64,000 bases of DNA. It comes from Squalus acanthias. Lineage: Eukaryota. Position 1 is the stretch's first letter. Each line of letters begins with the position of its first letter. Of the stretch, positions 8,171-47,379 are shown piece after piece. The notes under the pieces were generated by a model that ran no database searches, had not been told where the DNA came from, and saw only the letters and a list, made by a program, of their open reading frames with translations. A program made the translations under genes and the position numbers. The stretch lies in contig CM059431.1 in assembly GCA_030390025.1 (NCBI GenBank), forward strand, positions 150,042,001 through 150,106,000. Reading direction: 5' to 3'.

Positions 8171-8317
8171 AACCTCGAATTAATGTAAATAATTATGAAA
8201 GTCAGGGAACTGTCGTAAATTGATAAGCTTTCTGTGGGAGATGTTTATGTCATTGCCTATACTGAACAATAAGAAAATTTAATTTTATAGCCTGGCCCCT
8301 ACTCTAGATTTCGGAAC

Positions 8318-9510
8318 TGTAGACTTCGCAAAATCCCCCAGAAAGTCGAACAGATCCCTAAAGGGAGTGATTTCTGGACGTTTCATACAATCTTGGGATG
8401 ATGGGGCCTAAGTGAAGTGATTTGATGTAAAAACCGATAGATCAGGGAAGAAAAACCTGAGGAAAATGATTTTTTTTAAACCTTATTGTTGAGAGGGACA
8501 TTTTTTTCACGGACACAAGCTGCGAGGGGCCTGGCCGGTCAGTGAACAGATCAAGCTGCCTGGGAATTGTTTGAGACAAAGCAAAACTCACAAACACATT
8601 CAAATATGTATCTCCACGGGCAAACAAGATGCTGGAAATCTAAAAACGATTCAATGACAATATAACTTCGATCACACAGTTTCATAGCCATTATCCCATC
8701 AAAAAAAACATCAACCAGGTTTCCACAGAACAGATTTAAAAGCCCGCCAACAGAAGGACAATAGGGTGGAGATTTGGCGCGTAGGTAAGGCTGTGTTTAA
8801 ATCGGAAAACGATTAACACCATGCAAAAACCATCGGAACTGGCAAGACAGCCAAAAACTAGACAATTGCACTAAGCAAGCTTTATTTACAATCAAAAAGG
8901 AATTCGGTTTCGTAAGGGGTTTTTGGGCGCAAAAAAGAAACGGTATATCTTGAGATTCTCTGCCATAATTTCTCTCTTTTTCGGACTGACTGACGACGCG
9001 GACACAGCTCTCTCCCTGCTCCAGCAAAAATTAACACAAGCCACGAGGAAGAAGGCCAGAAGACAAGCACGCAAGAAGATACCAGAGCGACTGCCTCAGT
9101 GACCATCAGACACCTCGCAGCAACAAGGGCCTTACGGAGTCCTTTTAAAGAAAAGACTATAATATCCTGTCAATGAATCGTTGGTGAGCATTATCCCTGA
9201 TCTCCTGAAACCAAAAACCTAGCCAGATAGCGGGATCTTTTGGAGGGATAAGGTTTTGTTTGATATATTGTCATTTCCCTCGCTTGTACCGTGTGTTCCC
9301 CGAATCTGTGTTGAAGTAATAAGTGTGTTTCAAGTTTTTTACCTTTTTCCTTTAATAAAGTAAAATTCTTTCATCAGAACCTATTTACTGCAATTTTGTT
9401 CACAACCCCTAATTAAGCACAAAGTCTAGGTACCGGAGGGGTGTTGGAGCGATTCGAACCGCTCACTGTGTCATAAAGAGAAGGCTGAACCCATCAAGAT
9501 ACCCCTTACA
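8318..9510 (+). repeat. 5' LTR
   Basis: TGTAGACTTCGC...ACCCCTTACA. AATAAA at 9354-9359. Aligns end to end with 14960-16152. Confidence 0.95.
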
Positions 9511-9513
9511 TAA

Positions 9514-11202
9514 ATGGCGACCGTGGCAGGAGTTTGCCGAAAGTGTTGTGAAGCAGTAAATGCTGGTTTTGAGGAGAGAACAAAAATGGAAGAGAGGATG
9601 TCATCCTATGTATATAAAAAAGTAAATATCACCAAGAAATGGGTCCTCAGGCTGTTGCATGCTGGACGTCCTATGGACGCTGCAGCTGCATGGACTGAGA
9701 GCAAGGAATACAATAAGTCTGTGGAGAAAGCCATATGGTTGGTCTGCTCCCAGAAACAAATGCAGCTTATGGGGAAGCGCATTCAGGCTCTCACAGAAGA
9801 GCTAAAGGAAGAAAGCCAACTGTCCCGTGCCAGAGCTATAGCAGGGGATAGGTTGTTTGCAGATCTCGGCACAAAAGATCAGGAACAGTCACAGATGCTG
9901 GAGGAACACCGTGCCAGTAAGGGATACCTCCAGTGTCAGGCCACCGAGGCCAAAAGTAGTGGCATTGCGGGAGCAGAACACCCGCCTTGCCAAGCAATTA
10001 AGGGAACTCACAGAGAAGTTAAACGATGTTCAGGCAGCCTATAGAATAGCCAATAAAAGGGAGTTTGAGGTAGCGGACCACGGCCCCTGTCAGAAGCAGA
10101 TTGAGAGTCTGAACCTTGCTCTGTCCAAGGCAAAAGGCATGCTGTGCCTGATAAGCCAGGGTGCGGCCCAGGCAGACCTGGAAGAGCAGGGGGAGACTGT
10201 TCGACCACCACCTGTGGCGCCAAGGAGAAGCTTGGTTAGGCAGCAGGAGGTGCAGACAATCTGTGAGGCTGACGGGGAGTGCACACCAGCACCTGTGGCG
10301 CCGAGTTTTGACTCGGTCTGGCAGCAGGGAGAGGGGGGCTAACCGATGCAGGAGAAGTCGGAGCCAGGGCCAATGTGCCCAGCACGACAGCAAAAATTCG
10401 GCCCGCCCGCCGGTGGTGGAGGTCAGGGACCCCTTGAAAGTCAATTCTTGGCTCCCCACGGTACACAACAGCTTAGGGCTATGGTAAGCCACCTGAGTAA
10501 ACTTACCCAAAAGGAAGACCCCTCAGTCCACTTCATGGAGGTGGAGCAATCAGCAGCCATTAACGATTGTGACGATGCCGAAATGGCAAAAATTGCTCCT
10601 GTTCTCATTAGATGGCAAATTGTACCAGTCACTCTCTACTGAGAGCAAGAGAGGACAGAACGGGTATGCTGCCCTCAGGGAAAAAGTTTTAGAGGCCATG
10701 GGAATGAATGAGGGAAGTCCTTTCTCCCGGGTGGAGAAAAACAGTGCAACTCGCAGGGGAGACCCCACAGGCTTTCGCAGACAGGCTGTGGCCGGTGTGC
10801 ATGGGTGCTTGTAATGGGGCTCTCGACAGGGCTAACCGCAACAGGGACGAGCTGGCCCACTGGCTCCGTAGCCTAGTGGCAAACAGCTTGCCACGAGTCA
10901 AAGCCAAGGCTGAGCTTTGGTTTGACCCAAGAGATCCCCGGGTCACCGAGGAGGCAGTGGTCAGGCAACTGACCCTAGCCTACCGGAACGGTAGGGGAGC
11001 TGAAGAAACCCCAACGAAAGGGAAGGTGCATGAGATAAAGCCCAGTCAGGATAAGAAGGAGTGGCACCAGGAAGGTGGTAAACCTTCCGACATGAAGCAT
11101 AACTGCTTCGTGTGCGGGAAGAGGGGGCACTGGAGAAAGGACTGTAGAAATCCTGGAAGGATATGCTGTCAAAGAATTCCCCAGCTTTTGCCCCAAAAGT
11201 AG
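9514..11202 (+). pseudogene. gag: gag, frameshifted: N-terminal coiled coil, capsid-like region, CCHC zinc knuckle
   Basis: Chained ORFs 9514, 9857, 10346, 10569 and 10708. Heptads (LREQNTRLAKQLRELTEKLNDV) and CFVCGKRGHWRKDC at 11104-11145. Confidence 0.85.
9515..9531 (+). promoter_or_regulatory. Primer-binding site, probably tRNA-Arg
   Basis: TGGCGACCGTGGCAGGA, 4 nt after the LTR. One mismatch to the complement of a vertebrate tRNA-Arg(TCG) 3' end as I recall it (TGGCGACCGCGGCAGGA). Confidence 0.7.
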
Positions 11203-11369
11203 AGGCACCGACCTCTTCCCCCACAGTGGACACAATAGTAGCGGCCATCAGAGTCCTGTTTGTTGTCCCAGGGAATGTAGCTTCTGGTGCATTAATCCCA
11301 TCTGCACCCCGCTAACGCAGACCTATGACTGGAACCAGCGCAGCCTGTCTACCTGTGTTCCCCGGGATA

Positions 11370-11830
11370 CCATGTTAAGAAGGGGGTGGATAACGTGCAG
11401 GGGAGATTTTGGTGGACACCGGAGCTGCCAGCACTGTTGTCCATTCGGCAGACCTGACCAATTCACCCAAGTCTAGCGGGGTTCCTTACAGTTTAATTGG
11501 AATCACAGGGAACAAGCAGGTTGGGGCCATGTCCAAACAGTTGGACATAGATTAAGTATCCCTCCATACCACGTGGGAGGGTAACCAAAAGGCCGACAAG
11601 TTGGCCAAGCAGGGGGCCGGTGAAGGAGAGTTATGGGATCTGTATAAAGCAGGTCCGGTAGCTGCAATCCGGGATAAGATAGGTACACGAGGGGTAGCTT
11701 AGCCCCCGGACTTAAAGCAGGTCCAAGCCCAGCATCCCGTCTTTAAGGCCGGCCTCGTAGAGAGAGAGAGAGTGCGGAGTCTATCGGAGGTCCGTTCAGG
11801 GCAGAGGACGATATTTTTGAACAGAATCAC
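11370..11830 (+). pseudogene. pol: pro-pol remnant: aspartic protease joined by deletion to the RNase H C-terminus; RT and integrase core absent
   Basis: EILVDTGAASTVV at 11403-11441, LIGITG flap, EGNQKADKLAKQGA at 11577-11618, then DLKQVQAQHP linker. Confidence 0.8.
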
Positions 11831-12699
11831 TGGTAAGCAGCCAATAACCTGGGGAGCCAGCATCAGAAAGATGGGCTGCTGTTAGAACTGACCAGTGCAA
11901 ACTTTTTAATCCTAAAAGGGAACAGCCGGCCAAGTTAGAAATCCGCAGCAAGCCACAAATGTCGCAGACACACAAGCTGCAGCGCGTTGGACAGTGTGTT
12001 GTCTCACAGGAGAGTTCACTCCACCGATTATGTGGGGCTCAAGCACCCCCCCAGTGGCCAGAGCCCTAAGAAGGTCTCCCCGCACACAACATCAAAGGCT
12101 ACTTTGCCCACAGGTGTATCTGTTTAGAGGGTCCCACCCAAAGAGGGTTGCAACCCGAAGAAGAGCGCCCAAGAGCAGGGAGGTTCTAAAGTTGGGGATT
12201 CCCAGCCTACAGCCTCCAACAGTGAGGGTTTCACAGGAGAGGTAGTACTGGAAGAAGAGAGAGAGAAGGGTCCCCCGCCCGCAGCCTCAGGCTGGGAGGA
12301 GCACACAGATATTAACGAGGGCGCTGCAAACACACCAAAGGCGGTAGTGTGCTGCAGCACAGGACGCAGCTGGGATGTTAAGATACCCCCAGCGGTTTTG
12401 AGGAAGGCCTTCTGGGTCCGGCGGAACAGGCCGCACTACACCCAGGTGTACAAGCCATCCAGAGGCCACATAAGGAAGAGACTAAACAGGACTTTACCTG
12501 GCCGTCCGGAGACGGGGGGCAAATGTAAATAATTTTGGGTTTTTATGTAATTGCAGTTTTGGTGGTTGTGGGTTATCATTAGTTTAGTTGTTTGTAGAGT
12601 TTTTTTTAAGTTTAAGGGCTTGATTAATTATCCAGCCAGAGAAACTTTCTGGGACATGGATATATGTTTTGTGTGTGCCCCTACAGAAAGGACTTCGGG

Positions 12700-14676
12700 A
12701 TGACAAGGTTTCTGCTCCTGCTCGCCCTGGTAGGGGTGAGCATCGGCTACCGAGGTGACGTGGAGACTCCCACATCTATGGGTGCTCAGGAGTGAGAGCA
12801 CCAGTCGTCACCGCAGGGGGTGGCGAGCGGGGAGTGGAGGAGCTCGCCATCTACTTCCAGGAGGGAAGGTGGCCAGCGTGGCTGGGGTCCAACTCTGCTA
12901 AATACTCCAACCAGCCCGGGTTCACGTACGGGGAGGGCTCCCTCCCATGCCCCAGAATACAGGACATTGCCACAAGGGTCAGTGTCACCGAGGGGAAGCG
13001 TGTGTGCCTTACCTGAAAGCCCCTACCAACGACCCAATACCGAAAACCCTGGAAGAAAAGTGCCCTACCACCACCAAGGGACCAGGGAATGGGTTAGTCC
13101 TGGTACCAATCGAAAGAGTACTATACCAGGGGGTACACTATGAAGTAGCTTCAGTAATATTAAACCTTACCGAGGTATATTTACCTGAGTGGTGTCCTAA
13201 GGAAACGGAGCAGCTGTACCAGGCCCTGCTAAAGGAAATGTATAGGAAATTTTACGAATTTGATTTTGCCAATATAGACAAAGTAGAGCTGTACAGAATA
13301 CACCCTGAGAACCCTATGGGCACGGGTAGACAAAGAAGGGGAGCCTGAAATGATGTCTTCACTGCCTATAGTACAGAGTCCTCTGTAATAAATAGCCTGG
13401 ATGACATGGAATTACAGACACGGATAAATGGTTTAAAAACCCAGTTAAGAAAGATCCTGAAGAATGGGAACACAGTGGTAGGCTCAGAGCTACATGAGGA
13501 CCAAGCTATGACGGTTCATTTAAAGGAAATTATTGCAGAATTGGAAAGGCATGCCAAAACAGTAAATGCACTCATACGGGAGGATAGGAATGCATCGGAT
13601 CAGGCTGCACAGAATGAGGTGTGTGTGCTGTATGGGGCATGGTTGCTGGGCGAGGGCCGTAGCAACCTGGAGGATTTAAAGCAAGGTTTAGTCCCCTCCT
13701 GGATCAGCAACAAGCACCTAACAGACCTCCACGCGTTTAGTAATTCGCTGAGCCCATGCCAATTTCGTCTAGCCTCTGAAGCCTACCCTGTCCCAATAGA
13801 TTGTGGGGGTTCAAATCACACTATCATGGGGATAGTAGTGAGAATGCCGGTCATGAGTGGGACAGCCCGACCCGTACCGGTATACAGGGTGGAGAACATT
13901 GGAGTCATTCATGAGGGTGCACACATCAGTTTTACAGCGGTCCCACCTTATGTCATAAAGTGGGAGCACGCCATGACAGGTACTGACCTCTCCGGGTGCC
14001 GGAGCCGGGGTTCACACATAATACAGTGTCCCCAGCACTTGAACGCCTATTCCAAAAAACAGTGCGAGTTTAAAACTGCTGGCGCACGACCTATCAATAG
14101 TACCATGGAGGTGATGGCACACAGACATGTTTCGCCACAGGTAGCATATATAGGGGTGGGATATATTGTGTCACCACAGCTGCGTCCCACTAAGTGACAG
14201 CAGTTTCTGCTTTAAACCCGAGGCAGAAGTTCAAGTCGCCCAGGAACGGATTGTCCCCATTCCTTAACCCTCCACTGTTCACCTCACTGTAACAGAAAAC
14301 ATCACCTACCTGCAAAAGTATGTGACTTACTTTGGATGTAAAATTCCCCCTCTACCCGAACATCTTACCATCCTATTTAAAGCTGCAGGGATTTCACAAA
14401 AAACATTTCTACACCCTGGAACAGAAAACAGTTGAAATAGGGGCTGAGATTTTGGATATAGTAGTTCCACCCTGGTGGGATATTTTCGAGAATATAGAGG
14501 TGCCGTCCTGGATCAGGATGGCTTCCCATCTTTTGGTGGTCTGCCAGCTCGGGATAGTTCTCTACCTGCTGTGTACAAAGTGCAGGGGAAGGGACGGGGA
14601 GCTCCGCTACAGACAGGAAGGGACTTGGGAAGTGCATCAAAATAAAGGCTATTGCCAGGTTTGGAACGAACCTTGA
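12700..14676 (+). pseudogene. env: env, class I fusion glycoprotein of the F type (several stops and frameshifts)
   Basis: Acceptor ...gcccctacag at 12686; signal peptide MTRFLLLLALVGVSIG from ATG 12700; furin site RQRR at 13328-13339; heptad region; Cys-rich beta region; TM WIRMASHLLVVCQLGIVLYLLC. Confidence 0.85.
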
Positions 14677-14959
14677 ATTTTGTCTTTGAATAAAACAAAT
14701 TGTATGTGTGTTGTGTCATTTTTATGATGTGTATGATGTGTTTTTTCCAAGCTGTGCAGGTGTGTCGGACCCTCTCCGTGCTTGGATGTGAAATAAAGAT
14801 TGATTCTTACCTGTATGTAACTGAAACACAACTTTCAAAAGGGGAATGAATGTTTGGGTTTTTAGTTTAGGTAATATAGTCGAAGGTTGGTTTTCGGGGA
14901 TCAGAAATTTTGCTCACCTGTTAATGATACTAATTCAGTTTTATTATCAAACTGGAGGA

Positions 14960-16152
14960 TGTAGGCTTCGCAAAATCCCCCAGAACTCGAACAGAGCACT
15001 AAAGGGAGTGATTTTTGGACTTTTCATACAAACTTGGGATGATGGGCTCTCAGTGAAGTGATTTGATGTAAAAACCTATAGATCAGGGAAGAAAAACCTG
15101 AGGTAACTGATTTTTTTTTTATCTTATTGTTGGGAGAGACATTTTTTTCACAGGCACAAGCTGCGAGGGGCGTGGCAGGTCAGTGAACAGATCAAGCTGT
15201 CTGGGAATTGTTTCAGAAAAAGCAAAACTCAGAAACACATTCAAATATGGATCCCCGGTGCAAACAAAATGCTGGAAATCTAAGAACGATTCAATGACAA
15301 TATAACTTCTTTCACACAGTTTCATAGCCGTAATCCCATCAAAATAAACAATCAACCAGGTATCCACAGAACAGTTTTAAAAGCCCGCCAACAGAAGGAC
15401 AATAGGGTGGAGATTTGGTGCGTAGATAAGGCTGTGCTTAAATCGGAAATATATTAACTCTAAGCAAAAACCACCGGAACTGGCAAGCCCGCCAAAATCT
15501 AAACAATTGGACTAAGCAAGGTTCATTTACAATCAAAAAGGACTTCGTTTTCGTAAGTGGTTTTTTGGGAGCGAAAAAGAAACAGTATCATTTGAGAGCC
15601 TGTGCCATAATTTCTCTCTTTTTCGGACTGACTAACGACACGGACACTGCTCTCTCCCTGCTCCAGCAAAACTTACCACAAGCCACGAGGAAGAAGGCCA
15701 GAAAACCAGCACGCAAGAAGAAACCAGAGCGACTGCCTCAGTGACCATCAGACACCTCGCAGCAACATGGGGCTTACGGAGTCCTTTTAAACAAAAGACT
15801 CTAATATCCTGTCAAGGATTCGTTGGTGAGCATTATCCCTGATCTCCTGAAACCAAAACCCTAGCCAGATAGTGGGATCTTTGGGTGGGATAAGGTTTTG
15901 TTTATAATATTGTCATTTCCCTCGCTTGTACCGTGTGTTCCCCGTATCTGTGTTTAAATAATAAGTGTGTTTCAAGTTTGTTACCTTTTTCCTTCACTAA
16001 ATTAAGATTCTTTCATCAGAATCTGTTTACTGCAATTTTGTTCACAACCCCAAAATAAGCCCAAAGTCTAGGAACCGGAGGGGTTTTGGAGCGATTCGAA
16101 CCGCTCACTGTTTCAGAAAGCGAAGGCTGACACCATCAAGATACCCCTTACA
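14960..16152 (+). repeat. 3' LTR
   Basis: TGTAGGCTTCGC...ACCCCTTACA, preceded by a short purine-rich tract (aaactggagga) and followed by the GAAC TSD. Confidence 0.95.
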
Positions 16153-17899
16153 GAACCACGCAGAGAGAGATGAGCAAAGATCTCCAGACACCTCACGATC
16201 TTTTGATAAGATCACCTGAAAGCCCGAGAATGGCTTGGATCAGATGTCACGTGTGGCATGATATTGGGATACGGTTTTGTGCGTGAACGAACGAGTCTCA
16301 AACATGCTTCGTTATCGACAGCAGCACAACATGAAATGGCTAATGTGGCTCAGGAGAGTGAGACACTTCTTAAATCATAAAGGCCAGGACACATTCTCCA
16401 TAGAGAAACCGATTTTAAATATTCAGGATAGTGTTAAACATCCTGTCAGAGGCATTACAATTAAAAGTCAAGATAATGCTCATGAAATTAGGATTTCCTT
16501 TCCGCTAAATTTGTCGTCACCTTCAAGGCCTCTACTAAGTATTGAACAATGAAAGATTGTAGGGAGGCTAAAAACAACAGATATTAAGGGAGGCCGAGAC
16601 CTGTCTGTGTCTGGACCAGTTGGCCATGGTTGTATCCAAATCAGCGACAAGCTGAAGGTTTGAGACCAGGAGGCCATAACTTACAGGTTCCATAACAAAA
16701 CATGGATCCAAGTGAGAGGCAACCTCCAAGAGAAAGCAGAAGAAATCAAAAGGGTTTAATTTGTAATCAGTGATAAATAGAAGTGCAGCATCTCAATCGC
16801 ATAATTTCGGTGACAATAGAGAAAGAACCCTAAAGCAGGCTCCTTGGGATGATTGGGAGTCCCGTATGCAGGAGACCAGGAAGACCCCGCTGAACCAGGT
16901 GAGATGGGACACACCCTGACCCCAAACACTAAATTGGTCACTGAATTCATAGCGTTCAGTTAAAGACTTAATATCAGACTCGGACAAAAAGTAATTCGAG
17001 AACATTGTAAAATACTTCAATAACAACTTACAAGAAAACTTCAGCAAGTTATTTTAAAGTAACAAATGTCTTATGTTGATAAGTAATATTAACTATTGCT
17101 TTGCCAAGTACAAACGCTGATGGTGATCAACGTAACACTAAAACTTTTGTGAGACCAAAAGAAAGACATCCCACCTCACATACAGATCTCTACCTGTCCG
17201 ATCCAGCAAAATAACCCAAACGTTGATGGACTAGAAATAATTGAATCAGCAAATGTATTATATAATGATGTGTGTGTTGAAATTATACTGGTTGCGTTTA
17301 CGTTGATCTTGAATCTGTAAACCAGATTATGTGATGGGAGTTATTCACAATTAATAGGCAAAATGGAAGGAGAATTAGTAAATAATGTGCTAGTAAAGAA
17401 CAGAAAATAGGAACCAAGGGCTGAGGTAGACGAGGAGCAGAAGGAGAATCAGTTTAAAATCGAGAAGGATTGGCGATGAATAGGAGCCATGGCAAGGTTA
17501 GCGGGAGTTAGCAGAATACCTATAGAAAGTATGGAGGAACACGACGAGTTAATGAAGAGGCAATTGGAAAGATTGTTTGCAAACAATGAGGTTAACCAGA
17601 ATCAGGACCTTAATGGAGGAATCGTGTGTAGCCCCTATGTGACATTTGTGATGAATGTGGTACAGAATGGTCTTACTGCAATTATATAGGGCGCTGGGTG
17701 TGTCCCATTCCACCTGGTTCAGGGAGTCTTCCTGGTCTCCCGCATACGGGACTCACAGTATTCCCAAGGAACCGGCTTTAGGGATCTTTCTCTACTACCA
17801 CCGAAATAAAGCTTTTGAGAGGCCATACCTCGGTTTTTCACTGATTCCAAAACTAACCATTTTGAGGTCTTCTGCTTCATCATGGAGTTCACCATGGAT

Positions 17900-18875
17900 G
17901 TCACTCTGATATACGCCACACACAATACTTTAAAACTCTGATAAAGCGCAAACCCCTGAATTTAAGACTTTGATATACCCTACGCCCCACACTGTAACAC
18001 TCTGATTTACCCGGCATCACTCATTGTAACACTTTGATATACACAACACCCCTCACTGTAACACACTGAAATAGACCACACCCCTCACTGGAACATTCTG
18101 TTATACCCTAAACCCCTCACTGTAACACTCTGATTTACCACACATCACTCACTGTAACACTCTGATATACCACACACACCTCACTGTAATCCTTTCATAT
18201 ACCACACACCCCTCACTGTAATACTGATATATCTTACACGATTCTGATATAATCCGGTCCCCTCACTATAACACTCTGATATACTCCACCTCCATTACTG
18301 TAACCCACTCTGCTATACACCATACCAATCACTGTAACACTCTTATATAGCCCGCACCCCTCACTGGAACAGTATATTACACACCACTGCACTCAATGTA
18401 ACACTCTTATATAGCCCACACCCCACACTGTAACATACACCGATATACTTCACACACCTCAATGTAATACTCTAATATAACCCACACCCTCACTGTATCA
18501 TTATGATATTCCCACATCCCTCACTGTAATACACTTCGTTATCCCACATCCCTCGCTATAACACACTTATATATTCCACACCCATTACTCTAACACTGAT
18601 ATACCCCACACCCCTTACTTTAAACATCTGATATACCCTACAATTCTCACTCTCTCTTATATATCACACACGCCTCACTGTAACAATCTTACATACACCA
18701 CACCCCTCACTGTAACACTCTGATTCATGCCACACACTGGACTATTATTCCCACACCACTCTCTGTAATACTGATATACCTCACATCCCTCACTGTAGCA
18801 CTCTGATACATGCCACACTCTGGAAGGTTTCACCCCACACCACTCACTGTAATACTGACATAAGTCGCACCACTC
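17900..18875. repeat. Degenerate ~30-bp minisatellite (ccacacccctcactgtaacactctgatata)
   Basis: About 30 diverged units directly visible. Confidence 0.9.
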
Positions 18876-19134
18876 ACTGTTGCCACTGCCACTTTAATCC
18901 CATGGGCTTCAATTTTGGAAAAATGTGTTACTTTATCAAGCACCTTTTGCAAGTATAGGGAAATTGGGAAAGTGAAAGAAATATCAATCATAAAACCATA
19001 AAATTGGTGAGCCAAGTTGAGTTGACAATGTTTTTGGCGGAACATGATGCTCCGCTCTGATCACAGGCCTCGCCTGGTTTCAATCCGTGAATTTCATAAT
19101 CAGTGATTTTATTCCCATTTTATTATATATATTT

Positions 19135-31759: not shown

Positions 31760-32735
31760 GAAAGAAAGACTTGCATTTATAGAGCGCCTTTAACGACCAA
31801 AGAGAGCATCATAAAGACGGCCCCTCCGACAGGACAGTACTCCCTCAGTACTGCCTCTACAACAGTAGAGCACTCCCTCAGTACTTTCACTCTGACAGTG
31901 CAACACTCAGCCAATACTGTCCCTCGACAATACAGTGCTCCCTGCAGTTCCAACAGTGCAGCACTCGCTCAGTACTGCCCTTCCGACAGTGCAGCGCTCC
32001 CTCAGTTCTGACCCTACAACAGTGCAGCGCTCCCTCAGTACTGCCTCTCCAACAGTGCAGCGCTCCGTCAGTACTGACCATTCAACAGTGCAGCGCTCCC
32101 TCAGTACTGTCCCTTAAACAGTTCAGCGCTCCCTCCGTACTGACCCTTCAACAGTGCAGCGCTCCTTCAATACTGCCCCTCCGACAGTGCAGCGCTGCCG
32201 CAGTACTGCCCCTCCGACAGTGCAGCGCTCCCTCAGTACTGCACATTTGACAGTTTAGCTCTTCCTCAGTACAGCCCCTCAGACAGTGCAGCGCTCCCTC
32301 AGTACTGACCCTCCGACAGTGCAGTGATCCCTCGGTACTGCCCCTCCGACAGTGCAGCGCTCCCTCAGTACTGCACATTTGACAGTGTAGCTCTTCCTCA
32401 GTACTGCCGCTCAGACAGTGCAGCGCTCCCTCAGTATTGCCCATCGCGAATACAGAGCTCCCTCAGTAATGACCATCCGACAGTGCAGGGCTCCCTTAGC
32501 ACTGCCACTCCGGCAGTGCATCGGTCCCTCAGTACAGCATTGCGACTGTGCAGCTCTGCCTCTGTACTGCCCCTCCGACAGTGCATCGCCCCCTCAGTAC
32601 TGCCCCTCTGACAGTGCAGCGCTCCCTATCTACTGCACTGGAGTGTAATCCTCGATTATTGTAATCACGTCGCTGGAGTAGGAATTGAACACACAACCTT
32701 CTGACTCAGAGGCGAGTTTGCTAGCAACTGAGCCG
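31760..32735 (-). mobile_element. Deu-domain tRNA SINE with an internal 33-bp unit expanded to about 25 copies
   Basis: tRNA-like head at 32735-32660 (GGCTCAGTTG...GTTCAATTCC), array ctccctcagtactgcccctccgacagtgcagcg, and tail TAAATGCAAGTCTTTC as in 58050-58420. Confidence 0.8.
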
Positions 32736-36330: not shown

Positions 36331-36364
36331 CTTCGATTACTTTTTACTCACACTCACTTTGTAT

Positions 36365-36848
36365 CTCAGCCTCTCCAGTTGCTCTTGAACTCGCCCGGGT
36401 TTGGCTCTCTCGTTCTGCCCCCGCTGCTCTTGAACTCTCCCGGGTTTTGGCGCTCTCGCTCTGCTCCCGTTGCTCTTGAACTCACCCGGGTTTTGGCGCT
36501 CTGCTCCCGCTGCTTTTGAATTCTTCTTTGTTTTATCGCTCTCGCTCTGCTCCCGCTGCTTTTGAACTCTCCCGTGTTTTATCGCTCTCGCTCTGCTCCC
36601 GCTGCTTTTGAACTCTCCCGGGTTCTATCGCTCTCTCTCTGCTCCCGCTGCTTTGGAACTCTCCCAGGTTTTGGCGCTCTCGCTCTGCTCCCGTTGCTTT
36701 TGAACTCCCCAGGGTTTTGGCGTCTGCTCCCGCTGCTTTTGAACTCTCCCGGGTTTTGGCGCTCTCGCTCTGCTCCCGTTTCTTTTGAACTCCCCCGGGT
36801 TTTATCGCTCTCGCTCTGCTCACGCTACTTTTGAACTCTCCCGGGTTA
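36365..36848. repeat. ~46-bp tandem repeat, about 10 copies, at the 5' end of the CR1
   Basis: gctctcgctctgctcccgctgcttttgaactctcccgggttttatc units. Confidence 0.85.
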
Positions 36849-37966
36849 TCGGAAGCCTCAAAGTTTTGAACACTTTTATTAAATCTCCCCCTAACCTTCT
36901 CTGTCCTAAAGCGAAGAATCCTTGATTCTCCAATCTCCCACATAATTGAAGGTCCTCACCCCTAGTGATATTATGGTAAATTGTCTCCACACAAGCAACA
37001 GGCGATGACCAGGAAGAGATATTTTTAATTGCTCCATTGGACATCAATTGCATTTCCATCACCGAATCCTCCATCATCAATATCCTAGGCGTCGCCATTA
37101 ATCAGAATATCAACTGGAAAAGCCACATAAATGACTATAACAGCAGGTCAGAGGCTGGGGATTCTGAGGTGTGTAACTCACCTCCTGACTCCCCAAAGCA
37201 TTTCCAAAACCTAAAATGCACACGTCAAGAGCATTATGGATTACTATCTGTAGACACCGAATACATTAGCATAGTGGTTATTTTACTGTACTTGTATTCC
37301 AGAGGCCTGGACTAATAATCCGTGAGACATGAGTTCAAATCCCACCACGGCTGTTGGGGAATTTAAATTCAGTTAAATAAATACATTTGGAATTAAAAAG
37401 CTGGTATCAGTAATGGAGACCGTGATACTACCGGATTGTTGTTAAAAAAAACAACTGGTTCAATGAGTAACTTTAAGGATGGAGATCTGCCATCCTTACC
37501 TGGGCTGCCCTTATATGGTTGACACTTAACTACCCTCTGAAATGTCCCAGAAAGCCTCACAGTTGCACAAAAGTCAGACACTTTGGGGGTATCTTAAACT
37601 CAAGGGGGTAGAAATTAGGTCGCGCCCCATTTGGGGCGCAAATATCGTCCGGACGCAAATATTAGCGCCTGGCGCTAATTATCGGCACTGACAGGAAACT
37701 TCACTTTTACCACCCCGGGAGGTGAGTGGAGCGCTAAATTAGGCGCTGCGCACCTGTCTCAAGGCGCAAAGGCCAAGGAGTGAGGCGCTAACTCAGCGCA
37801 CGAGCGCAGCACAGCTGCTGCCAGTTAGCGAGGGAACACAGACACAATGGCGCCGGACACTTCTTAAAGCGGGGGGGGGGGGGGCACTTGCTCCCCAGCC
37901 ACACCCTGCTCATTGCAGCCTTGAATCTCAGCCTGGAGAGACCTGTAATCCATTTTGCTGCCAAGC

Positions 37967-39957
37967 ATGGAGAGGGTGAGAGAACGCGCTCATCGCTTCA
38001 CCGAGCGGGCCTTGGATGCTCTGGTTGGCGCAGTGGAGCGCAGACGATGCATGCTGTTCCCGGAGAGTGGCAGGAGGCCTTTGCCACGCGAGTTCAGAAG
38101 ACTGTGGAGGGAGGTGGCTCAGAGCGTCTCCTCCAGGAGCATGGTGCCCAGGACCCATGTTCAATGCCGCAAAAAGTTCAACGACCTCACTCGGGTCGTC
38201 AGGGTGAGTGGCTTTTTCTCAATACCTCTCCATCCCTCCATCTCAACCTCACTCTATGGCCAGAGGGTCTTAAAACCCCAATGCACAACACTCATCCAAC
38301 ACCTATGGCCCTTTCATCAAACACACACACACATTCCACACTTTGCATACAGTAAGGGCTATTCACCTATGGGAGGCACATCAGGCAAGACCATGGCTGT
38401 ATATTGTAAGGGCTATTCACCTATGGGAGGCACATCAGGCAAGACCATGGCTGCATACAGTAAGGGCTATTCACCTATGGGAGGCACATCAGGCAAGACC
38501 ATGGCTGCATACAGTAAGGGCTATTCACCTATGGGAGGCACATCAGGCAAGACCATGGCTGTATATTGTAAGGGCTATTCACCTATGGGAGGCACATCAG
38601 GCAAGACCATGGCTGTATATTTACTCAGATGCTGTCCTTTTTCTTGCAGGCTAAGCTGGCTCATAATCGGAGACAGCAGCAACGGACGGGTGGAGGGCGG
38701 CTTCAGCTGCAACCCCTCAGCGATCTGGAGGAGCGCGTCCACAGGATTGTTGCAAGCCGGGTGATCGGTCCCGTCGCCACTGGAGACGCAGACCCCGTTG
38801 TGGACAGCAATGGTAAGGTCATCACCTTTTTGTCCTCTGTCCTTCCACTTGTCCCTCACAATACCAGCCTTTGACACTTTCAATCCAACTTGCTAACTCG
38901 CTGCACTTATTCCTCCCTTACTGCCACCCTGTCCTCACGCTAAAGCCACTCTTGTACCTCCCTGCTTTCAGATGGTGATTCACCAGCTGAGGAGACGGGC
39001 CCTGAAGCTGCCACTGGGAGTGATGCTGCAGCTGAGGAGGAAGAGGAAGCCGGAGCATCAGTGCCACCCTCTCCCGAGGAAGCCCATGCCCACACTGGGA
39101 ACACGCCTTCCCCGGAGGGGAGCAGGTGGGAAGAGGCTGATGATGGTGAAGCTCCAGGACCCAGCGGGCTGCAGCAACGCCATGGGGGGGGGGGGGGGTA
39201 GGGAAGAACGGGGGCCTTCTCCCCAGAGGGAGAGTATGCCAGACACTCCTACTGCAATGGACGCAGCGGAGGAGCGGCTGATTGCAGAAATGAACACCCA
39301 GGCGGTGGGCATGCACACTGAGCTCATGGGTGCAGTGGGAAGGGTGCCCGATGGCATTGAGTCACTGGCAAGGAGTGTGGAGCACTTCGCTGTAGCACAG
39401 GCGGATGCCACACTAATGCTTAGTGCTGCAATTCAGTCACTGGCTGCCGTGATCCCACCTCTGACTGCTCTCATACAGACTCAGATGGAGGCCACGCGAG
39501 CACTGACTGCTGCCATCCTCGATGGTTCGTGCACATGTCCCCGGGGCTGTCACCGCGCCGCAGCAGGCCAGCAATCTGTTCTCCGGCAAATTGCTCCGGA
39601 TGCTGTAGTGCTGCCCCGTGGGAGTGCCAGTGTGTCGGGCGAGCAGGGAGTTGCTGTCCTCTCTCACGATGACAGCATTCCTGCTGCCAACACTGTCACT
39701 TCTCCACTGCACTTGCCACCGCCTGTAGGACAGACTGCTGCCGCCATGCAGAGTTGGTGCAGTCTGCAGCCGGGCCCTCCAGGCCCAGAAGTGGTCGAGG
39801 CCGTCCTTCAGGGGCATCTGCAGTGTCAGGGTCTGACGAGCAGCAGCGTTCCACCAGCCTTGCTGCAGCCACTGAGGTCCCATTACGGAGGAGCAGTAGG
39901 GTTAGAAGGGGGGAAGTGCGCAAGGGAAGGAGATCACAATCGAAGGGCAAAAAGTAG
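37967..39957 (+). pseudogene. Harbinger Myb/SANT-like DNA-binding gene, 3 exons (37967-38203, 38650-38812, 38972-39957), frameshifted
   Basis: RFTERALDALV..WREVAQSV..RTHVQCRKKFNDL. Canonical GT-AG junctions. A G15 tract gives an in-frame TAG. Confidence 0.8.
38352..38621. repeat. 54-bp VNTR, 5 copies, in Myb intron 1
   Basis: gtaagggctattcacctatgggaggcacatcaggcaagaccatggctgtatatt; 3 copies in element 2 (46283-46444). Confidence 0.95.
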
Positions 39958-40251
39958 GAGGTGTGCCAAAATGCTGGTCATTTTTTTATTAAAGGCCGAG
40001 GTTCATGGTCCAACTTTTGTTTAGTGTTTTGGACATTATCTCCAGGTTGTGAGAACCAGTTATGTTATTGACTGTTTTTTTGTGTTTATTTCTATGAGTT
40101 TGTCATGAGGAATTGACACACACAGAGTTTGTAAAATAAATAAGTTTCTGTATTCAAAATATACATGGCTGGTGGTTGGAATTATTGGTGCCTTGGCCGG
40201 CTTAGGGGTTGCGTGCTGGGTTGATTAGTGTTTGTAGCAATGGCAGGGGCC

Positions 40252-41412
40252 CTAGAAGCGGCTTGCTATTAGTCGTTGACGGACGGCCCTTGCAGTTTGA
40301 CCATTGTGGGCCGCCCTCCTGCCTTGGTGCTGCTGATGATCATCGTCCTCGTCCTGTTCCTCTTCTTCCTCCTCCTCCTCTGGTGGTGCTACAAGGCCTG
40401 GTGGCATTGGCTGGGTCCTGAGGATTGCCATGTTGTGCAACATGCAGCACACGACTACGAAGTTCGGAACTTGTTCAGGCGAGTACTGCAGTGCTCCTCC
40501 GGAATGGTCCAGACAGCGGAACCGTTGTTTCAGCACGCCGATTGTGCGCTCAATAATGTTCCTGGTTGCTTGATGGCTTTCATTGTACCGCAGCTCAGCA
40601 GGGGTGTTTGGCGTACGGAGCGGTGTCATCAGCCAGGTGCTCAATGCGTTCCCCTTGTCCCCCAGAAGCCAACCAACTGGCTGATGCGGTGCCTCGAAAA
40701 CTTCTGCCACAGTAGTCTAGCGCAGGATGAAAGCATCGTGGCAGCTGCCCGGATAGTGGGCATTGACAGCGAGTATCACCTGTCTGTGGTCACAGACCAA
40801 CTGCACATTCAAGGAATGGAGCCCCTTTCTGTTCCTGAATTCCTCTGCATTCTCTCGCAGAGCACGCAAAGCCACATGTGTGCAGTCAATGGCGCCCTGC
40901 ACCATGGGGAAGCCCGCTACCCTCGCAAAGCCCAGAGAACGGTCACGCTGCTTGTCTGGGGTCATAGGGAAAGAGATGAAGTCTCGTCTCCTTCTGAAGA
41001 GGGCATTGGTGACCTGCCGGATGCAGCGATGCACCGCAAACTGGGAGATATTGCCGAGGTCCCCAACAGCAGCTTGGAATGAGCCAGTGGCATAGAAGTT
41101 CAAAGCCACTGTGACCTTCACTGCCACCGACAGAGACGTCCTGTACCTCAGCTGAGGCTGCAGATCTGGCTGCAGCAGGTGGCAGAGTTCAGTGACCACC
41201 TACTTGCTGAATCGCAGCCTTCGCAAACACAGCTCCTCGGACATATGGATGTAGGAGAGCTGTTCACGATATACCCTTGGAGGGTAAGCTCTCCTGTACA
41301 TGCGCCTGATGGCCCTCCTCCGTCTGGCCATCATTGCCACTCTCTGTCTGCGTCTCACTATCCTCCGATTCAGCTGGAGCAGGACGACGCCCCCAATCAT
41401 TGCAGCCCCCAT
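40252..41412 (-). pseudogene. Harbinger transposase, copy 1, with premature stops
   Basis: Nearly identical to 43487-44647 but split into ORFs 41200-41412, 40717-41199 and 40252-40710 by TAG codons. Confidence 0.92.
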
Positions 41413-42082
41413 ATTCTCTTTGCCAGAAAAGTAATGAGGTACAGCAACTAAAGTAGCAACAAAGTTAGGATGAACTAGGCCAAACTACCTCATAAAGCGT
41501 TGAGTCAATGTAGAAGTCTCTCTCTCTCTCTCTCCGAATCTCTCTCTCTCTCTCAGAACGAGTGGTGCATAAATGTCGACCACAGAAAAAGACAGGAAGA
41601 GGCCCCCTTTAAATAGCGCCCCCCCCCCCAGCCCCACACCAATTGATAACGTTCCAGTCTTCAGGTCGTTGGAAGCGCCAGGCGGTAAGGCAGGGGGCGC
41701 CACTCAATTTCCGCTCTGGGGCGCCCCAAGGGCGTTGCACCATGGAATGACGTCACAATCTGCGCGCGCAGGTGGTCGCAGCGGTAAGTTTTAGCGCCGC
41801 CGCACAATCTCAAGTTAAGTTCTCGAGCGGCGCAAACAGCGCTGCGCCCGGGCGTTAGCGGCTTAACTCCCCATTAGCGCCCTCTTAAGGCGCTAACGGG
41901 GGGCGCAACCAAGTGAATTTTTCCCCCCAGGACTGCAGCGGTTCAATAAGGCGGCTCACCACCACATTCTGACGGACAATTAGGAAGTGGCTTGCCTTGC
42001 CAGCGATGCCCACATTCCGTGAATGAATGAATAAATAAAATACACCGAACCTTTCTCAAAATTAAGCATAATGAAACATATT

Positions 42083-42961
42083 GGGGTAGAAATTAGGTCG
42101 CGCCCCATTTGGGGCGCAAATATCGTCCGGACGCAAATCTTAGCGCCTGGCGCTAATTATCGGCACTGACAGGAAACTTCACTTTTACCGCCCCGGGAGG
42201 TGAGTGGAGCGCTAAATTAGGCGCTGCACACCTCTCTTAAGGCGCAAAGTCCGAGCAGTGAGGCGCTAACTCGGAGCGCTGGCGAAGCTCATGTAATGTC
42301 AGTCAGCAATGGAACACACACACAATGGCACGGGCCAGTTCTTAAAGGGGATGGTTAATCTTGCTTTCCATCCACATCCTGTTCATTGCTGCCTTGAATC
42401 TCGGCCTGGAGAGACTCGCACATCAAATGTGCTGGAAAGAACAATGGAGAGCACCAGGCAAAGAGCTCAGAGTGCAGATCCCACGGTCTCTGCTAAATCG
42501 ATACAAGGAATGGCAAATCAAAATGAACCTGCAAAGTGCTGCTCAGTACCCAAAACTCCTTCACACAACGTTGAATCTCTCCAGAAGTCTCTCCCTCTCT
42601 CTCTCAGAATGCGTAGTTCAAAAATGCCACCAACAATAAAAGACAGGAAGAGGCCCCCTTTAAATAGCGCCCCCCCCCAGCCCCACAGCGATTGATAGCG
42701 TTCCAGTCTTCTGGTCGTTGGAAGCGCCAGGCGGTAAGGCAGGGGGCGCCACTCAATTTCCGCTACGGGGCGCCCCAAAGGCGTTGCACCATGGAATGAC
42801 GTCACAATCTGCGCGCGCAGGTGTTCGCAGCGGTAAGTTTTAGCGCCGCCGCACAATCTCAAGTTAAGTTCTCGAGCGGCGCAAACATCGCTGCGCCCGG
42901 GCGTTAGCGGCTTTGCGACCCATTAGCGCCCTCTTAAGGCGCTAACGGGTGGCGCAACCAA
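42083..42961 (+). mobile_element. Non-autonomous Harbinger derivative with truncated right TIR
   Basis: Both ends match the autonomous element; nearly identical to 57113-58004; lacks the last ~15 bp. Confidence 0.9.
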
Positions 42962-43139
42962 CCATTAAAACTGAGGGGTAAAAATTCACTTGGTTGCGCC
43001 TCCCGTTAGCGCCTTAAGAGGGCGCTAATGGGGCGTTAAGCCGCTAACGTCCGGGCGCAGCGCTGTTTGCGCCGATCGAGAACTTAACTTGAGATTGTGC
43101 GGCGGCGCTAAAAGTTAACGCTGCGACCACCTGCGCGCG

Positions 43140-43295
43140 CAGATTGTGACGTCATTCCATGGTGCAACGCCCTTGGGGCGCCCGGGAGCGGAAATTGAGT
43201 GGCGCCCCCTGCCTTACCGCCTGGCGCTTCCAACGACCAGAAGACTGGAACGTTATCAATCGGTGTGGGGCTGGGGGGGGCGCTATTTAAAGGGG
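43140..43295 (+). promoter_or_regulatory. Putative transposase promoter
   Basis: CRE palindrome TGACGTCA ~43147 and TATA-like TATTTAAA ~43284, ~200 bp upstream of ATG 43487. Kept in all four family members. Confidence 0.45.
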
Positions 43296-43486
43296 GCCTC
43301 TTCCTGTCTTTTTCTGTGGTCGACATTTATGCACCACTCGTTCTGAGAGAGAGAGAGAGATTCGGAGAGAGAGAGAGAGAGACTTCTACATTGACTCAAC
43401 GCTTTGTGAGGTAGTTTTGCCTAGTTCATCCTAACTTTGTTGCTACTTTAGTTGCTGTACCTCATTACTTTTCTGGCAAAGAGAAT

Positions 43487-44647
43487 ATGGGGGCTGCAAT
43501 GATTGGGGGCGTCGTCCTGCTCCAGCTGAATCGGAGGATACTGAGACGCAGACAGAGAGTGGCAATGATGGCCAGACGGAGGAGGGCCATCAGGCGCATG
43601 TACAGGAGAGCTTACCCTCCCAGAGTATATTGTGAACAGCACTCCTACATCCATATGTCCGAGGAGCTGTGTTTGCGAAGGCTGCGATTCAGCAAGGAGG
43701 TGGTCACTGAGCTCTGCCACCTGCTGCAGCCAGATCTGCAGCCTCAGCTGAGGTCCAGGACGTCTCTGTCGGTGGCAGTGAAGGTCACAGTGGCTTTGAA
43801 CTTCTACGCCACTGGCTCATTCCAAGCTGCTGTTGGGGACCTCGCCAATATCTCCCAGTTTGCGGTGCATCGCTGCATCCGGCAGGTCACCAATGCCCTC
43901 TTCAGAAGGAGACGAGACTTCATCTCTTTCCCTATGACCCCAGACAAGCAGCGTGACCGTGCTCTGGGCTTTGCGAGGGTAGCGGGCTTCCCCATGGTGC
44001 AGGGCGCCATTGACTGCACGCATGTGGCTTTGCGTGCTCCGCGAGAGAATGCAGAGGAATTCAGGAACAGAAAGGGGTTCCATTCCTTGAATGTGCAGTT
44101 GGTCTGTGACCACAGACAGGTGATACTCGCTGTCAATGCCCACTATCCGGGCAGCTGCCACGATGCTTTCATCCTGCGCCAGACTACTGTGGCAGAAGTT
44201 TTCGAGGCACCGCATCAGCCAGTTGGTTGGCTTCTGGGGGACAAGGGGTACGCATTGAGCACCTGGCTGATGACACCGCTCCGTACGCCAAACACCCCTG
44301 CTGAGCTGCGGTACAATGAAAGCCATCAAGCAACCAGGAACATTATTGAGCGCACAATCGGCGTGCTGAAACAACGGTTCCGCTGTCTGGACCATTCCGG
44401 AGGAGCCCTGCAGTACTCGCCTGAGCAAGTTTCGAACTTCGTAGTCGTGTGCTGCATGTTGCACAACATGGCAATCCTCAGGACCCAGCCAATGCCACCA
44501 GGCCTTGTAGCACCACCAGAGGAGGAGGAGGAAGAGGAGGAACAGGACGAGGACGATGATCATCAGCAGCACCAAGGCAGGAGGGCGGCCCACAATGGTC
44601 AAACTGCAAGGGCCGTCCGTCAACGACTAATAGCAAGCCGCTTCTAG
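43487..44647 (+). CDS. Intact PIF/Harbinger DDE transposase (HARBI1-like), 386 aa
   Basis: GAIDCTHV, PGSCHDA, LLGDKGY, IERTIGVLKQRFRCL, CCMLHN; uninterrupted ORF. Confidence 0.95.
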   Translation: MGAAMIGGVVLLQLNRRILRRRQRVAMMARRRRAIRRMYRRAYPPRVYCEQHSYIHMSEELCLRRLRFSKEVVTELCHLLQPDLQPQLRSRTSLSVAVKVTVALNFYATGSFQAAVGDLANISQFAVHRCIRQVTNALFRRRRDFISFPMTPDKQRDRALGFARVAGFPMVQGAIDCTHVALRAPRENAEEFRNRKGFHSLNVQLVCDHRQVILAVNAHYPGSCHDAFILRQTTVAEVFEAPHQPVGWLLGDKGYALSTWLMTPLRTPNTPAELRYNESHQATRNIIERTIGVLKQRFRCLDHSGGALQYSPEQVSNFVVVCCMLHNMAILRTQPMPPGLVAPPEEEEEEEEQDEDDDHQQHQGRRAAHNGQTARAVRQRLIASRF

Positions 44648-44941
44648 GGCCCCTGCCATTGCTACAAACACTAATCAACCCAGCACGCAACCCCTAAGCC
44701 GGCCAAGGCACCAATAATTCCAACCACCAGCCATGTATATTTTGAATACAGAAACTTATTTATTTTACAAACTCTGTGTGTGTCAATTCCTCATGACAAA
44801 CTCATAGAAATAAACACAAAAAAACAGTCAATAACATAACTGGTTCTCACAACCTGGAGATAATGTCCAAAACACTAAACAAAAGTTGGACCATGAACCT
44901 CGGCCTTTAATAAAAAAATGACCAGCATTTTGGCACACCTC

Positions 44942-46831
44942 CTACTTTTTGCCCTTCGAGGGTGATCTCCTTCCCTTGCGCACTTCCCCCCTTCTAACCC
45001 TACTGCTCCTCCGTAATGGGACCTCAGTGGCTGCAGCAAGGCTGGTGGAAGGCTGCTGCTCGTCAGACCCTGACACTGCAGATGCCCCTGAAGGACGGCC
45101 TCGACCACTTCTAGGCCTGGAGGGCCCGGCTGCAGAATGCACCAACTCTGCATGGGCGGCAGCAGTCTGTCCTACAGGCGGTGGCAAGTGCAGTGGAGAA
45201 GTGACAGTGTTGGCAGCAGGAATGCTGTCATCGTGAGAGAGGCCAGCAACTCCCTGCTCGCCCGACACACTGGCACTCCCATGGGGCAGCACTTCAGCAT
45301 CCGGAGCAATTTGCCGGAGAACAGATTGCTGGCCTGCTGCGGCGCGGTGACAGCCCCGGGGACATGTGCACGAACCATCGAGGTTGGCAGCAGTCTGTGA
45401 TCGCGTGGCCTCCATCTGAGTCTGTATGAGAGCAGTCAGAGGTGGGATCACGGCAGCCAGTGACTGAATTGCAGCACTAAGCGTTAGTGTGGCATCCGCC
45501 TGTGCTACAGCGAAGTGCTCCACACTCCTTGCCAGTGACTCAATGCAATCGGGCACCCTTCCCACTGCACCCATGAGCTCAGTGTGCATGCCCACCGCCT
45601 GGGTGTTCATTTCTGCAATCAGCCGCTCCTCCTCTGCGTCCATTGCAGTAGGAGTGTCTGGCATACTTTCCCTCTGGGGAGAAGGCCCCCGTTCTTCCCT
45701 ACCCCCCCCCCCCCCCCCCCATGGCGTTGCTGCAGCCCGCTGGGTCCTGGAGCTTCACCATCATCAGCCCCTTCCCACCTGCTCCCCTCCGGGGAAGGCG
45801 TGTTCCCAGTGTGGGCATGGGCTTCCTCGGGAGAGGGTGGCACTGATCCTCCGGCTTCCTCTTCCTCCTCAGCTGCAGCATCACTCCCAGTGGCAGCTTC
45901 AGGGCCCGTCTCCTCAGCTGGTGAATCACCATCTGAAAGCAGGGAGGTACAAGAGTGGCTTTAGCGTGAGGACAGGGTTGCAGTAAGGGAGGAATAAGTG
46001 CAGCGTGTTAGCAAGTTGGATTGAAAGTGTCAAAGGCTGGTATTGTGAGGGACAAGTGGAAGGACAGAGGACAAAAAGGTGATGACCTTACCATTGCTGT
46101 CCACAACGGGGTCGGCGTCTCCAGTGGCGACGGGACCGATCACCCGGCTTGCCACAATCCTGTGGACGCGCTCCTCCAGATCGCTGAGGGGTTGCAGCTG
46201 AAGCCGCCCTCCACCCGTCCGTTGCTGCTGTCTCCGATTATGAGCCAGCTTAGCCTGCAAGAAAAAGGACAGCATCTGAGTAAATATACAGCCATGGTCT
46301 TGCCTGATGTGCCTCCCATAGGTGAATAGCCCTTACAATATACAGCCATGGTCTTGCCTGATGTGCCTCCCATAGGTGAATAGCCCTTACAATATACAGC
46401 CATGGTCTTGCCTGATGTGCCTCCCATAGGTGAATAGCCCTTACTGTATGCAAAGTGTGGAATGTGTGTGTGTGTGTTTGATGAAAGGGCCATAGGTGTT
46501 GGATGAGTGTTGTGCATTGGGGTTTTAAGACCCTCTGGCCATTGAGTGAGGTTGAGATGGAGGGATGGAGAGGTATTGAGAAAAAGCCACTCACCCTGAC
46601 GACCCGAGTGAGGTCGTTGAACTTTTTGCGGCATTGAACATGGGTCCTGGGCACCATGCTCCTGGAGGAGACGCTCTGAGCCACCTCCCTCCACAGTCTT
46701 CTGAACTCGCGTGGCAAAGGCCTCCTGCCACTCTCCGGGAACAGCATGCATCGTCTGCGCTCCACTGCTTCAACCAGAGCATCCAAGGCCCGCTCGGTGA
46801 AGCGATGAGCGCGTTCTCTCACCCTCTCCAT
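44942..46831 (-). CDS. Harbinger Myb/SANT-like gene copy 2 (exons 46831-46595, 46254-46092, 45932-44942); frame break only at a G19 tract
   Basis: Same exon structure as copy 1. C-terminal ORF 44942-45664 is open and ends in a basic NLS-like tail. Confidence 0.7.
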
Positions 46832-47379
46832 GCTTGGCAGCAAAATGGATTACAGGTCTCTCCAGGCTGAGATTCAAGGCTGCAATGAACAGGGTGTGGC
46901 TGGGGACCAAGTGCCCCCCCCCGCTTTAAGAAGTGTCCGGCGCCAGTGTGTCTGTGTTCCCTCGCTAAATGGCAGCAGCTGTGCTGCGCTCGTGCGCTGA
47001 GTTAGTGCCTCACTCCTTGGCCTTTGCGCCTTAAGAGAGGTGTGCAGCGCCTACTTTAGCGCTCCACTCACCTCCCGGGGCGGTAAAAGTGAAGTTTCCT
47101 GTCAGTGCCGATAATTAGCGCCAGGCGCTAATATTTGTGTCCGGACGATATTTGCGCCCCAAATGGGGCACGACCTAATTTCTACCCCTAAGAGTCAGCA
47201 AAAATAAACAGGTTCTAATGGATCCTATTCAGGAGAAGATTTCCAGCTGTGTTCGAACATTAATTGTCTAAGAATCTGTAAGGAAAGACATGAGGTCCTA
47301 GAATTTCCGGTCCGAAATCTTCTGTTTAGTGCCTTCGCTCGAGAGGGATTACTAGACCCTTGAACTTTCACCATTGTTT

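Follow-up and report, generated by a model that had tools for sequence, protein, structure and literature searches.

A deleted env copy from a high-copy endogenous retrovirus family of Squalus acanthias whose Env is a predicted F-type fusogen with a probable Ig-like N-terminal module

The env locus at 12686-14676 in the window (the whole 64,000-nucleotide stretch of Squalus acanthias DNA analysed here) is a dead, internally deleted copy. In the account that we consider very probable, it belongs to a high-copy endogenous retrovirus (ERV) family whose Env, 784 residues long, is a predicted F-type fusogen with a module at its N-terminus that is likely Ig-like and would act in attachment.

The locus lies inside a 7.8-kb two-LTR element on the forward strand (as are all its features given below), with TG...CA LTR ends and a 4-bp target-site duplication (8314-8317, identical to the four bases at 16153-16156 directly after the 3′ LTR). 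The element lacks reverse transcriptase (RT) and most of integrase, and its nearest named proteins are from sawshark and skate (51-75% identical). The 5′ LTR (8318-9510) and 3′ LTR (14960-16152) are 91% alike, the latter preceded by a purine-rich tract (14949-14959). A primer-binding site for tRNA-Arg(TCG), with one mismatch (9515-9532), overlaps the gag ATG at 9514, leaving no leader between primer-binding site and gag (9511-9532). Its pattern matched the genome 431 times, against 0 for a control, and ARAGORN called the source tRNA as tRNA-Arg(tcg) in both of two loci. Elsewhere in the genome, tRNA-Arg(TCG) and tRNA-Ser genes lie in long tandem arrays that repeat every 1.62 kb (L042-L044). 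The broken gag (9514-11202) encodes a coiled coil, a putative capsid-like part and a CCHC knuckle (zf-CCHC, E = 7e-5), unlike foamy Gag, which is not known to have a CCHC knuckle; sibling gag frames span 614-641 amino acids. The internally deleted pol (11300-12535), aligned to the pol-bearing sibling L034, retains a protease remnant, the RNase H end and a C-terminal tail, with no RT and no integrase core. Outside the element, a nested inverted repeat at 37600-47200, with arms 95-99% complementary over several kilobases around a 1-kb centre, may represent a foldback element or else an inverted duplication. The window also holds minisatellites with periods of 32, 33, 46, 54 and 31 bp (17900-18900, 31800-32700, 36350-36900, 38340-38670 and 47400-49400, respectively).

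A splice-acceptor-like site of putative use, a pyrimidine tract with a CAG ending at 12686 (12668-12686), stands 14 nt ahead of the env ATG at 12700, as the original prediction had it. The acceptor AG and the ATG keep the same position in all 14 siblings that cover the site (19 were examined; 5 are unaligned there), including three subfamily loci only 70% alike at this place. A motif scan gave a candidate splice donor at 9183, within the 5′ LTR, which adjoins the start at 9182 of homology to the LTR of a second subfamily. Contigs from four runs, guessed to be RNA, list no joint into 12686 over 9100-14900; contigs cannot show splicing or expression.

From the ATG, a hydrophobic 16-residue leader (12700-12747, by eye) matches the proposed signal peptide and leads into a remnant of the N-terminal module, corresponding to about residues 17-105 of the family Env (12748-13016; 88-92% to siblings by tblastn). 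After the junction of a 348-nt deletion (13014-13019) comes the fusogen core, comprising an F2-like part (13061-13327; residues 243-245 onward of the sibling model correspond to the start of hPIV3 and RSV F2), the furin motif RQRR (13328-13339), an F1-like ectodomain that by the sibling model includes a putative fusion peptide, a long HRA helix, beta domains and HRB (13340-14517), and a transmembrane helix (14518-14574; Kyte-Doolittle 19-mer peak of 2.07 in the sibling). A short tail ends at the stop codon at 14674-14676. The RQRR, the quoted F2-like and F1-like motifs and a transmembrane segment had all been pointed out before and are in the sequence; R-x-K/R-R occupies the furin position in shark and frog relatives too. 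Two premature stops interrupt the frame, at the deletion junction (13014-13016) and at the TGA at 13346, in the putative fusion peptide, together with five frame-breaking indels, near 12765, 13037, 14153, 14191 and 14398 by comparison with 11 siblings. The TGA had been predicted correctly, whereas the frameshifts placed at ~12790 and ~12945 are not at those positions. A Cys-rich stretch upstream of 13037, when read in the F2 frame, is out-of-frame sequence because of the deletion near 13015 and its junction stop. The env of this copy would have decayed at or after insertion.

The window alone suggests a compact, F-like Env made up of signal peptide, F2 and F1 and free of any large receptor-binding insert. 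It had been described in this way, and two lokiretrovirus Env sequences in the available part of the PMC7947760 supplement share that layout. The family does not. The deletion, which removed most of the Ig-like segment, measures 347-348 nt against all 11 siblings aligned, and the extra stretch at 13015 is present in 14 of the 19 best siblings, those aligning on both sides (the other 5 are unaligned 5′ of it). In two of four public runs, belonging to two studies, contigs have about 370 letters where the deletion lies, and the junction itself was found once in the genome (at most 2 mismatches). Searching the genome with the F1 part returned 7843 initial candidates, of which 138 were scored; the 137 besides this copy are 86-93% identical. 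Two siblings yield a 784-residue Env whose furin site is at residue 327, so the N-terminal subunit in the family has about 330 residues, not about 210, with about 220 of them ahead of F2. With the N-terminal 215 residues as query, 150 of 150 scored matches cover at least 209 residues, these being the best-scoring matches and so biased toward full length. Sawshark and skate proteins carry a module homologous to that of the family (55-70%). As the junction creates a stop codon and is present at a single place in the genome, the deletion never gave a short working Env. We conclude that the compact look is an artefact, produced by a deletion that belongs to this copy alone, and we give almost no credence to a naturally compact Env lacking the extra module.

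We modelled the unaltered 784-residue Env of a sibling with AlphaFold2, using a 41-sequence alignment. The model (mean pLDDT 56.5, pTM 0.41) is confident mainly at residues 240-300 and 430-650, with residues 1-235 and 314-392 mostly below a pLDDT of 50. Foldseek against the PDB ranked hPIV3 F first (E = 1e-10), followed by RSV, henipavirus and NDV F, with 242 chains at E ≤ 0.001. VIA-align paired sibling residues 245-650 with residues 26-432 of hPIV3 F, spanning the cleavage site (Z 13.3, 329 residues, r.m.s.d. 17.9), and paramyxovirus or pneumovirus F made up all 50 of the matches listed, measles F among them at Z 10.3 and 16% identity. TM-scores to F were 0.2-0.3 by query length, and r.m.s.d. 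values were large. The nested core, in which both subunits feed the beta domains and the helical bundle, is present in the predicted sibling model. The top ESM Atlas matches were Baculo_F clusters (0.90-0.91), and among the predicted viral structures of BFVD we detected F-like proteins of insect mononegaviruses, baculoviruses and paramyxoviruses, as well as feline foamy Env (E = 4e-4).

Pfam scans of the window and sibling proteins detected neither Fusion_gly nor another fusion family, and no retroviral coat family; single-sequence PDB searches with the window pieces and siblings gave nothing significant. The best PDB match of the family profile was foamy gp130 (8rm1; E = 0.018), on the foamy-like motif quoted in the original prediction, so the likeness to the foamy Env transmembrane subunit holds weakly. 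No gamma-type transmembrane subunit was matched, and the 784-residue Env has no adjacent cysteines and thus no CX6CC motif. Downstream of the furin site the peptide has little hydrophobicity (19-mer means of -0.13 to 0.28) and falls below a pLDDT of 50 in the model. We conclude that the family Env is a predicted F-type fusogen (class Ib, as PMC11468914 uses the term), with the F fold predicted over residues 245-650. The proposal of a class I fusogen of the paramyxovirus/pneumovirus F type, likened to measles F, is right and is well supported by the predicted structure.

Compared with paramyxovirus and pneumovirus F, the family Env shares the predicted fold over 245-650, the order of F2, furin site and F1, the long HRA helix and the transmembrane anchor. 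It differs in its low identity (8-16%), about 220 additional N-terminal residues, retroviral coding and the weakly hydrophobic post-cleavage peptide. With foamy Env, as described in the available part of PMC11468914 and in PDB 8rm1, it has in common a canonical retroviral context, an F-type core and the weak transmembrane-subunit profile match; in foamy Env the receptor-binding domain is inserted between the subunits, whereas the module of the family is N-terminal and its F core is contiguous between residue 245 and the furin site (327). BFVD models of epsilonretrovirus Envs also matched the sibling model (WEHV-1, E = 1e-11; WDSV, E = 4e-10). The WDSV and WEHV-1 Envs are much longer (1159 and 1317 amino acids), with TM-scores of 0.13-0.24 by query, which makes this match a lead only; we found no literature on an F-type match of either Env.

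The N-terminal module is probably Ig-like. Residues 85-170 show the Cys, Trp, Tyr-x-Cys spacing of Ig domains (by eye; C106, W115-117 and Y165-x-C167 in P0011), which recurs in relatives, P0012 lacking the second Cys. Pfam Ig_3 was detected in 4 of 10 aligned members (E = 0.003-0.6), always below the 30-bit cut-off, and the ten best family matches of the module in the ESM Atlas belong to one clan, with the listed families of Ig type, at 0.80-0.82. Bamboo shark and frog relatives have N-terminal extensions at the same place; one bamboo-shark relative is labelled Ig-like in UniRef, and another matches V-set at E = 0.045. A separate model of the module reached a pLDDT of 37, and fold searches with it (Foldseek best E = 0.024, VIA best Z 4.5) gave mixed beta-sandwiches, many of them Ig, none at a significant score and with non-Ig sandwiches ranked first; a PDB profile search with the module gave no match. 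That the module is instead a beta-sandwich peculiar to the virus and unrelated to Ig, or that it serves in folding or shielding and plays no part in receptor binding, is less likely, though we give it appreciable weight. Every Ig signal lies below threshold, hhalign produced no alignment of the module with the N-terminal parts of the distant Envs P0018 and P0037, and the shark Envs P0017 and P0029 start with a different, Cys-rich N-terminus. Against this alternative are the Cys-Trp-Tyr-x-Cys spacing in P0011, the Ig_3 hits, the single Ig-type clan in the Atlas (for all its scores of 0.80-0.82) and the two bamboo-shark relatives. A role of the module in attachment is suggested by its position, by analogy with coronavirus S1 as presented in the available part of PMC11468914.

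Ten siblings were followed over their whole length. Six carry an RT-less pol like that in the window, one a full pol, two another open reading frame (ORF), and one env and LTR only. The full sibling pol encodes protease, RT, tether (RT_RNaseH), RNase_H and integrase. Since all 150 of the 150 scored genome matches to RT are at least 90% alike, helper enzymes acting in trans appear to be plentiful. A second subfamily (L026:1918-7274 and L028:2388-7427) has different LTRs, a gag and nearly the same env but no pol; an ORF of 250-300 amino acids, similar to a portion of the coiled coil in gag and with no Pfam match, replaces pol.

The nearest named proteins to the family RT are frog and coelacanth proteins (48-51%) named NYNRIN-like. 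The RT scored 231 bits against the top PDB entries, which we take to be gammaretroviral RT p80, and 212 bits against an entry that we take to be foamy PR-RT; no foamy row stands in the tree. We built a quick RT tree of 97 rows, with three short matches dropped, and a careful one of 34 rows, consisting of the family RT and 33 of 99 matches chosen by hand; the careful tree is without named foamy, ERV-L or SnRV sequences and has two Loki-type rows, identified by motif. A branch with 100/99 support places the family RT on the canonical-retrovirus side, away from the Loki-type rows, and within that side it groups weakly with frog and coelacanth Pols (84/83).

These data bear on whether the element might be a lokiretrovirus, which would be the first known from cartilaginous fishes and would have an Env that grew longer secondarily. 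The family Env and the lokiretrovirus Env, as described in the available part of PMC7947760, are alike in being retroviral env products with F homology, a signal peptide, R-x-K/R-R, a transmembrane segment and an accompanying dual RNase H. The F-type Env and dual RNase H favour such an assignment, the latter being common to all retroviruses, as do the G-P-x-x-G-hydrophobic motif that opens F2 in both (by eye, from the part of PMC7947760 available) and the frog and coelacanth NYNRIN-like proteins as closest RTs. However, the family has LPQGFHNS where Loki RTs have PFGYSNS (at 38 places in the available PMC7947760 supplement), both trees place its RT with canonical retroviruses, and the AU test rejects a single clade uniting it with the two Loki-type rows (p = 0.0004). 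Lokiretroviruses are also unreported from cartilaginous fishes in the portion of PMC7947760 at hand, whose table stars none of six chondrichthyan genomes as host, and the two complete Loki Envs given there begin F2 directly after the signal peptide. The family RT lies outside the lokiretrovirus-type RTs, and we dropped the label on the RT motif, both trees and the AU test; the lokiretrovirus reading is highly improbable.

Clade Huo and the SnRV-related ERVs, including elephant-shark CmiERV lineage I (available parts of PMC6001957 and PMC4422223), resemble the family in being canonical and non-gamma, with a cartilaginous-fish host. SnRV shares the RT motif LPQGFH with the family; in the tree, the family groups with the frog and coelacanth Pols and not with P0083, the one row with the SnRV-type motif in a tree with no named SnRV. 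The available parts of PMC6001957 and PMC4422223 contain no description of the clade Huo or CmiERV lineage I Envs as F-type.

The LTR pairs of four siblings differ by 1.3-2.4%, and the env cores among these siblings by 1.2-1.9%. In this copy the LTRs differ by 8.5%, mostly through transversions (70 transversions and 31 transitions, versus 2-7 and 12-21 in the four siblings), and the env core lies 3.3-3.8% from the siblings; this copy may be older, may have mutated in an unusual way or may be less accurately assembled. The transversion excess is patchy over 8318-16152, mainly A>T, G>T and C>A; candidate causes are a local mutational process and an assembly error. Both this excess in the LTR pair and the position of the single-base indels, next to runs of 3-6, would fit assembly error in place of decay for some of the small breaks. 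We consider that unlikely, as a 348-nt error is improbable and accuracy is not low in general, judging by an inverted repeat of 99% identity in another part of the window.

An unbroken frame from signal peptide to transmembrane segment is present in 4 of 19 siblings, which is expected because the family is young, with LTR pairs differing by 1.3-2.4%. Intact env frames thus exist elsewhere in the genome, and the suggestion that an intact copy could be a candidate for co-option gains nothing from them. Among four long-frame copies, pN/pS was 0.12-0.84 and so stayed under 1 in each of 12 pairwise comparisons, module included; the changes behind these values are few, the pairs are not independent and the copies were selected for their long frames. 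Together with the intact frames, these ratios fit an env in use while the family spread and give no sign of co-option; at the present locus, two premature stops and five frame-breaking indels argue against a co-opted env gene. Database gene models P0006, P0013 and P0043 contain Env pieces fused to host proteins (Niban-like, zinc finger and F-box); these are likely gene-prediction artefacts or exonised fragments.

We propose that the ancestral virus would have made a spliced mRNA from the LTR donor and the acceptor at 12686, encoding a signal-peptide precursor. Furin would have cut this at RQRR into an N-terminal subunit, consisting of the module, a Pro/Thr linker and F2, and an F1 subunit. The module may have engaged a receptor on the cell surface, the part that S1 plays in the coronavirus spike, and refolding of HRA and HRB would then have fused the membranes. 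The RT-less subfamily to which this copy belongs may have spread in trans with the enzymes of pol-bearing relatives.

F-type Envs have been published for lokiretroviruses (PMC7947760), foamy viruses (PMC11468914) and invertebrate errantiviruses, as far as the available parts of these sources extend, and related work, likewise available in part, includes PMC9040795, PMC12583693, PMC11521997, PMC13709493 and bioRxiv 2023.10.26.564294, 2021.11.05.467493 and 2024.03.25.586437. The shared ancestry of retroviral Env and F, for which this Env had been called informative, is already covered by PMC7947760 and PMC11468914 in the parts available. In the literature, subscription papers aside, we found no description of an Ig-plus-F Env or of an F-type Env in this lineage. 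In the available part of their paper, Wang and Han (PMC7947760) leave open four scenarios for the origin of retroviral Env, and Fernandez et al. (PMC11468914) place orthoretroviral Env in a subclass separate from that of foamy Env and F, again in the part available. The copy in the window matters little in itself, beyond its warning that one deleted copy can pass for a minimal fusogen. At the level of the family, an F-type Env in a canonical retrovirus outside the foamy viruses provides a further branch for testing the Env-origin scenarios. Its N-terminal module would fill the slot of an N-terminal receptor module, so far described for the coronavirus spike in the available part of PMC11468914. 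Tentatively, and at somewhat less than even odds in our estimation, F-type Env may be ancestral to retroviruses, kept by lokiretroviruses, foamy viruses, a basal shark-frog-coelacanth lineage and possibly epsilonretroviruses, with gamma- and beta-type Env a later replacement. If this is true, the family would represent a third way of adding receptor binding to an F scaffold, through an exchangeable Ig-like domain at the N-terminus that may have come from a host gene.
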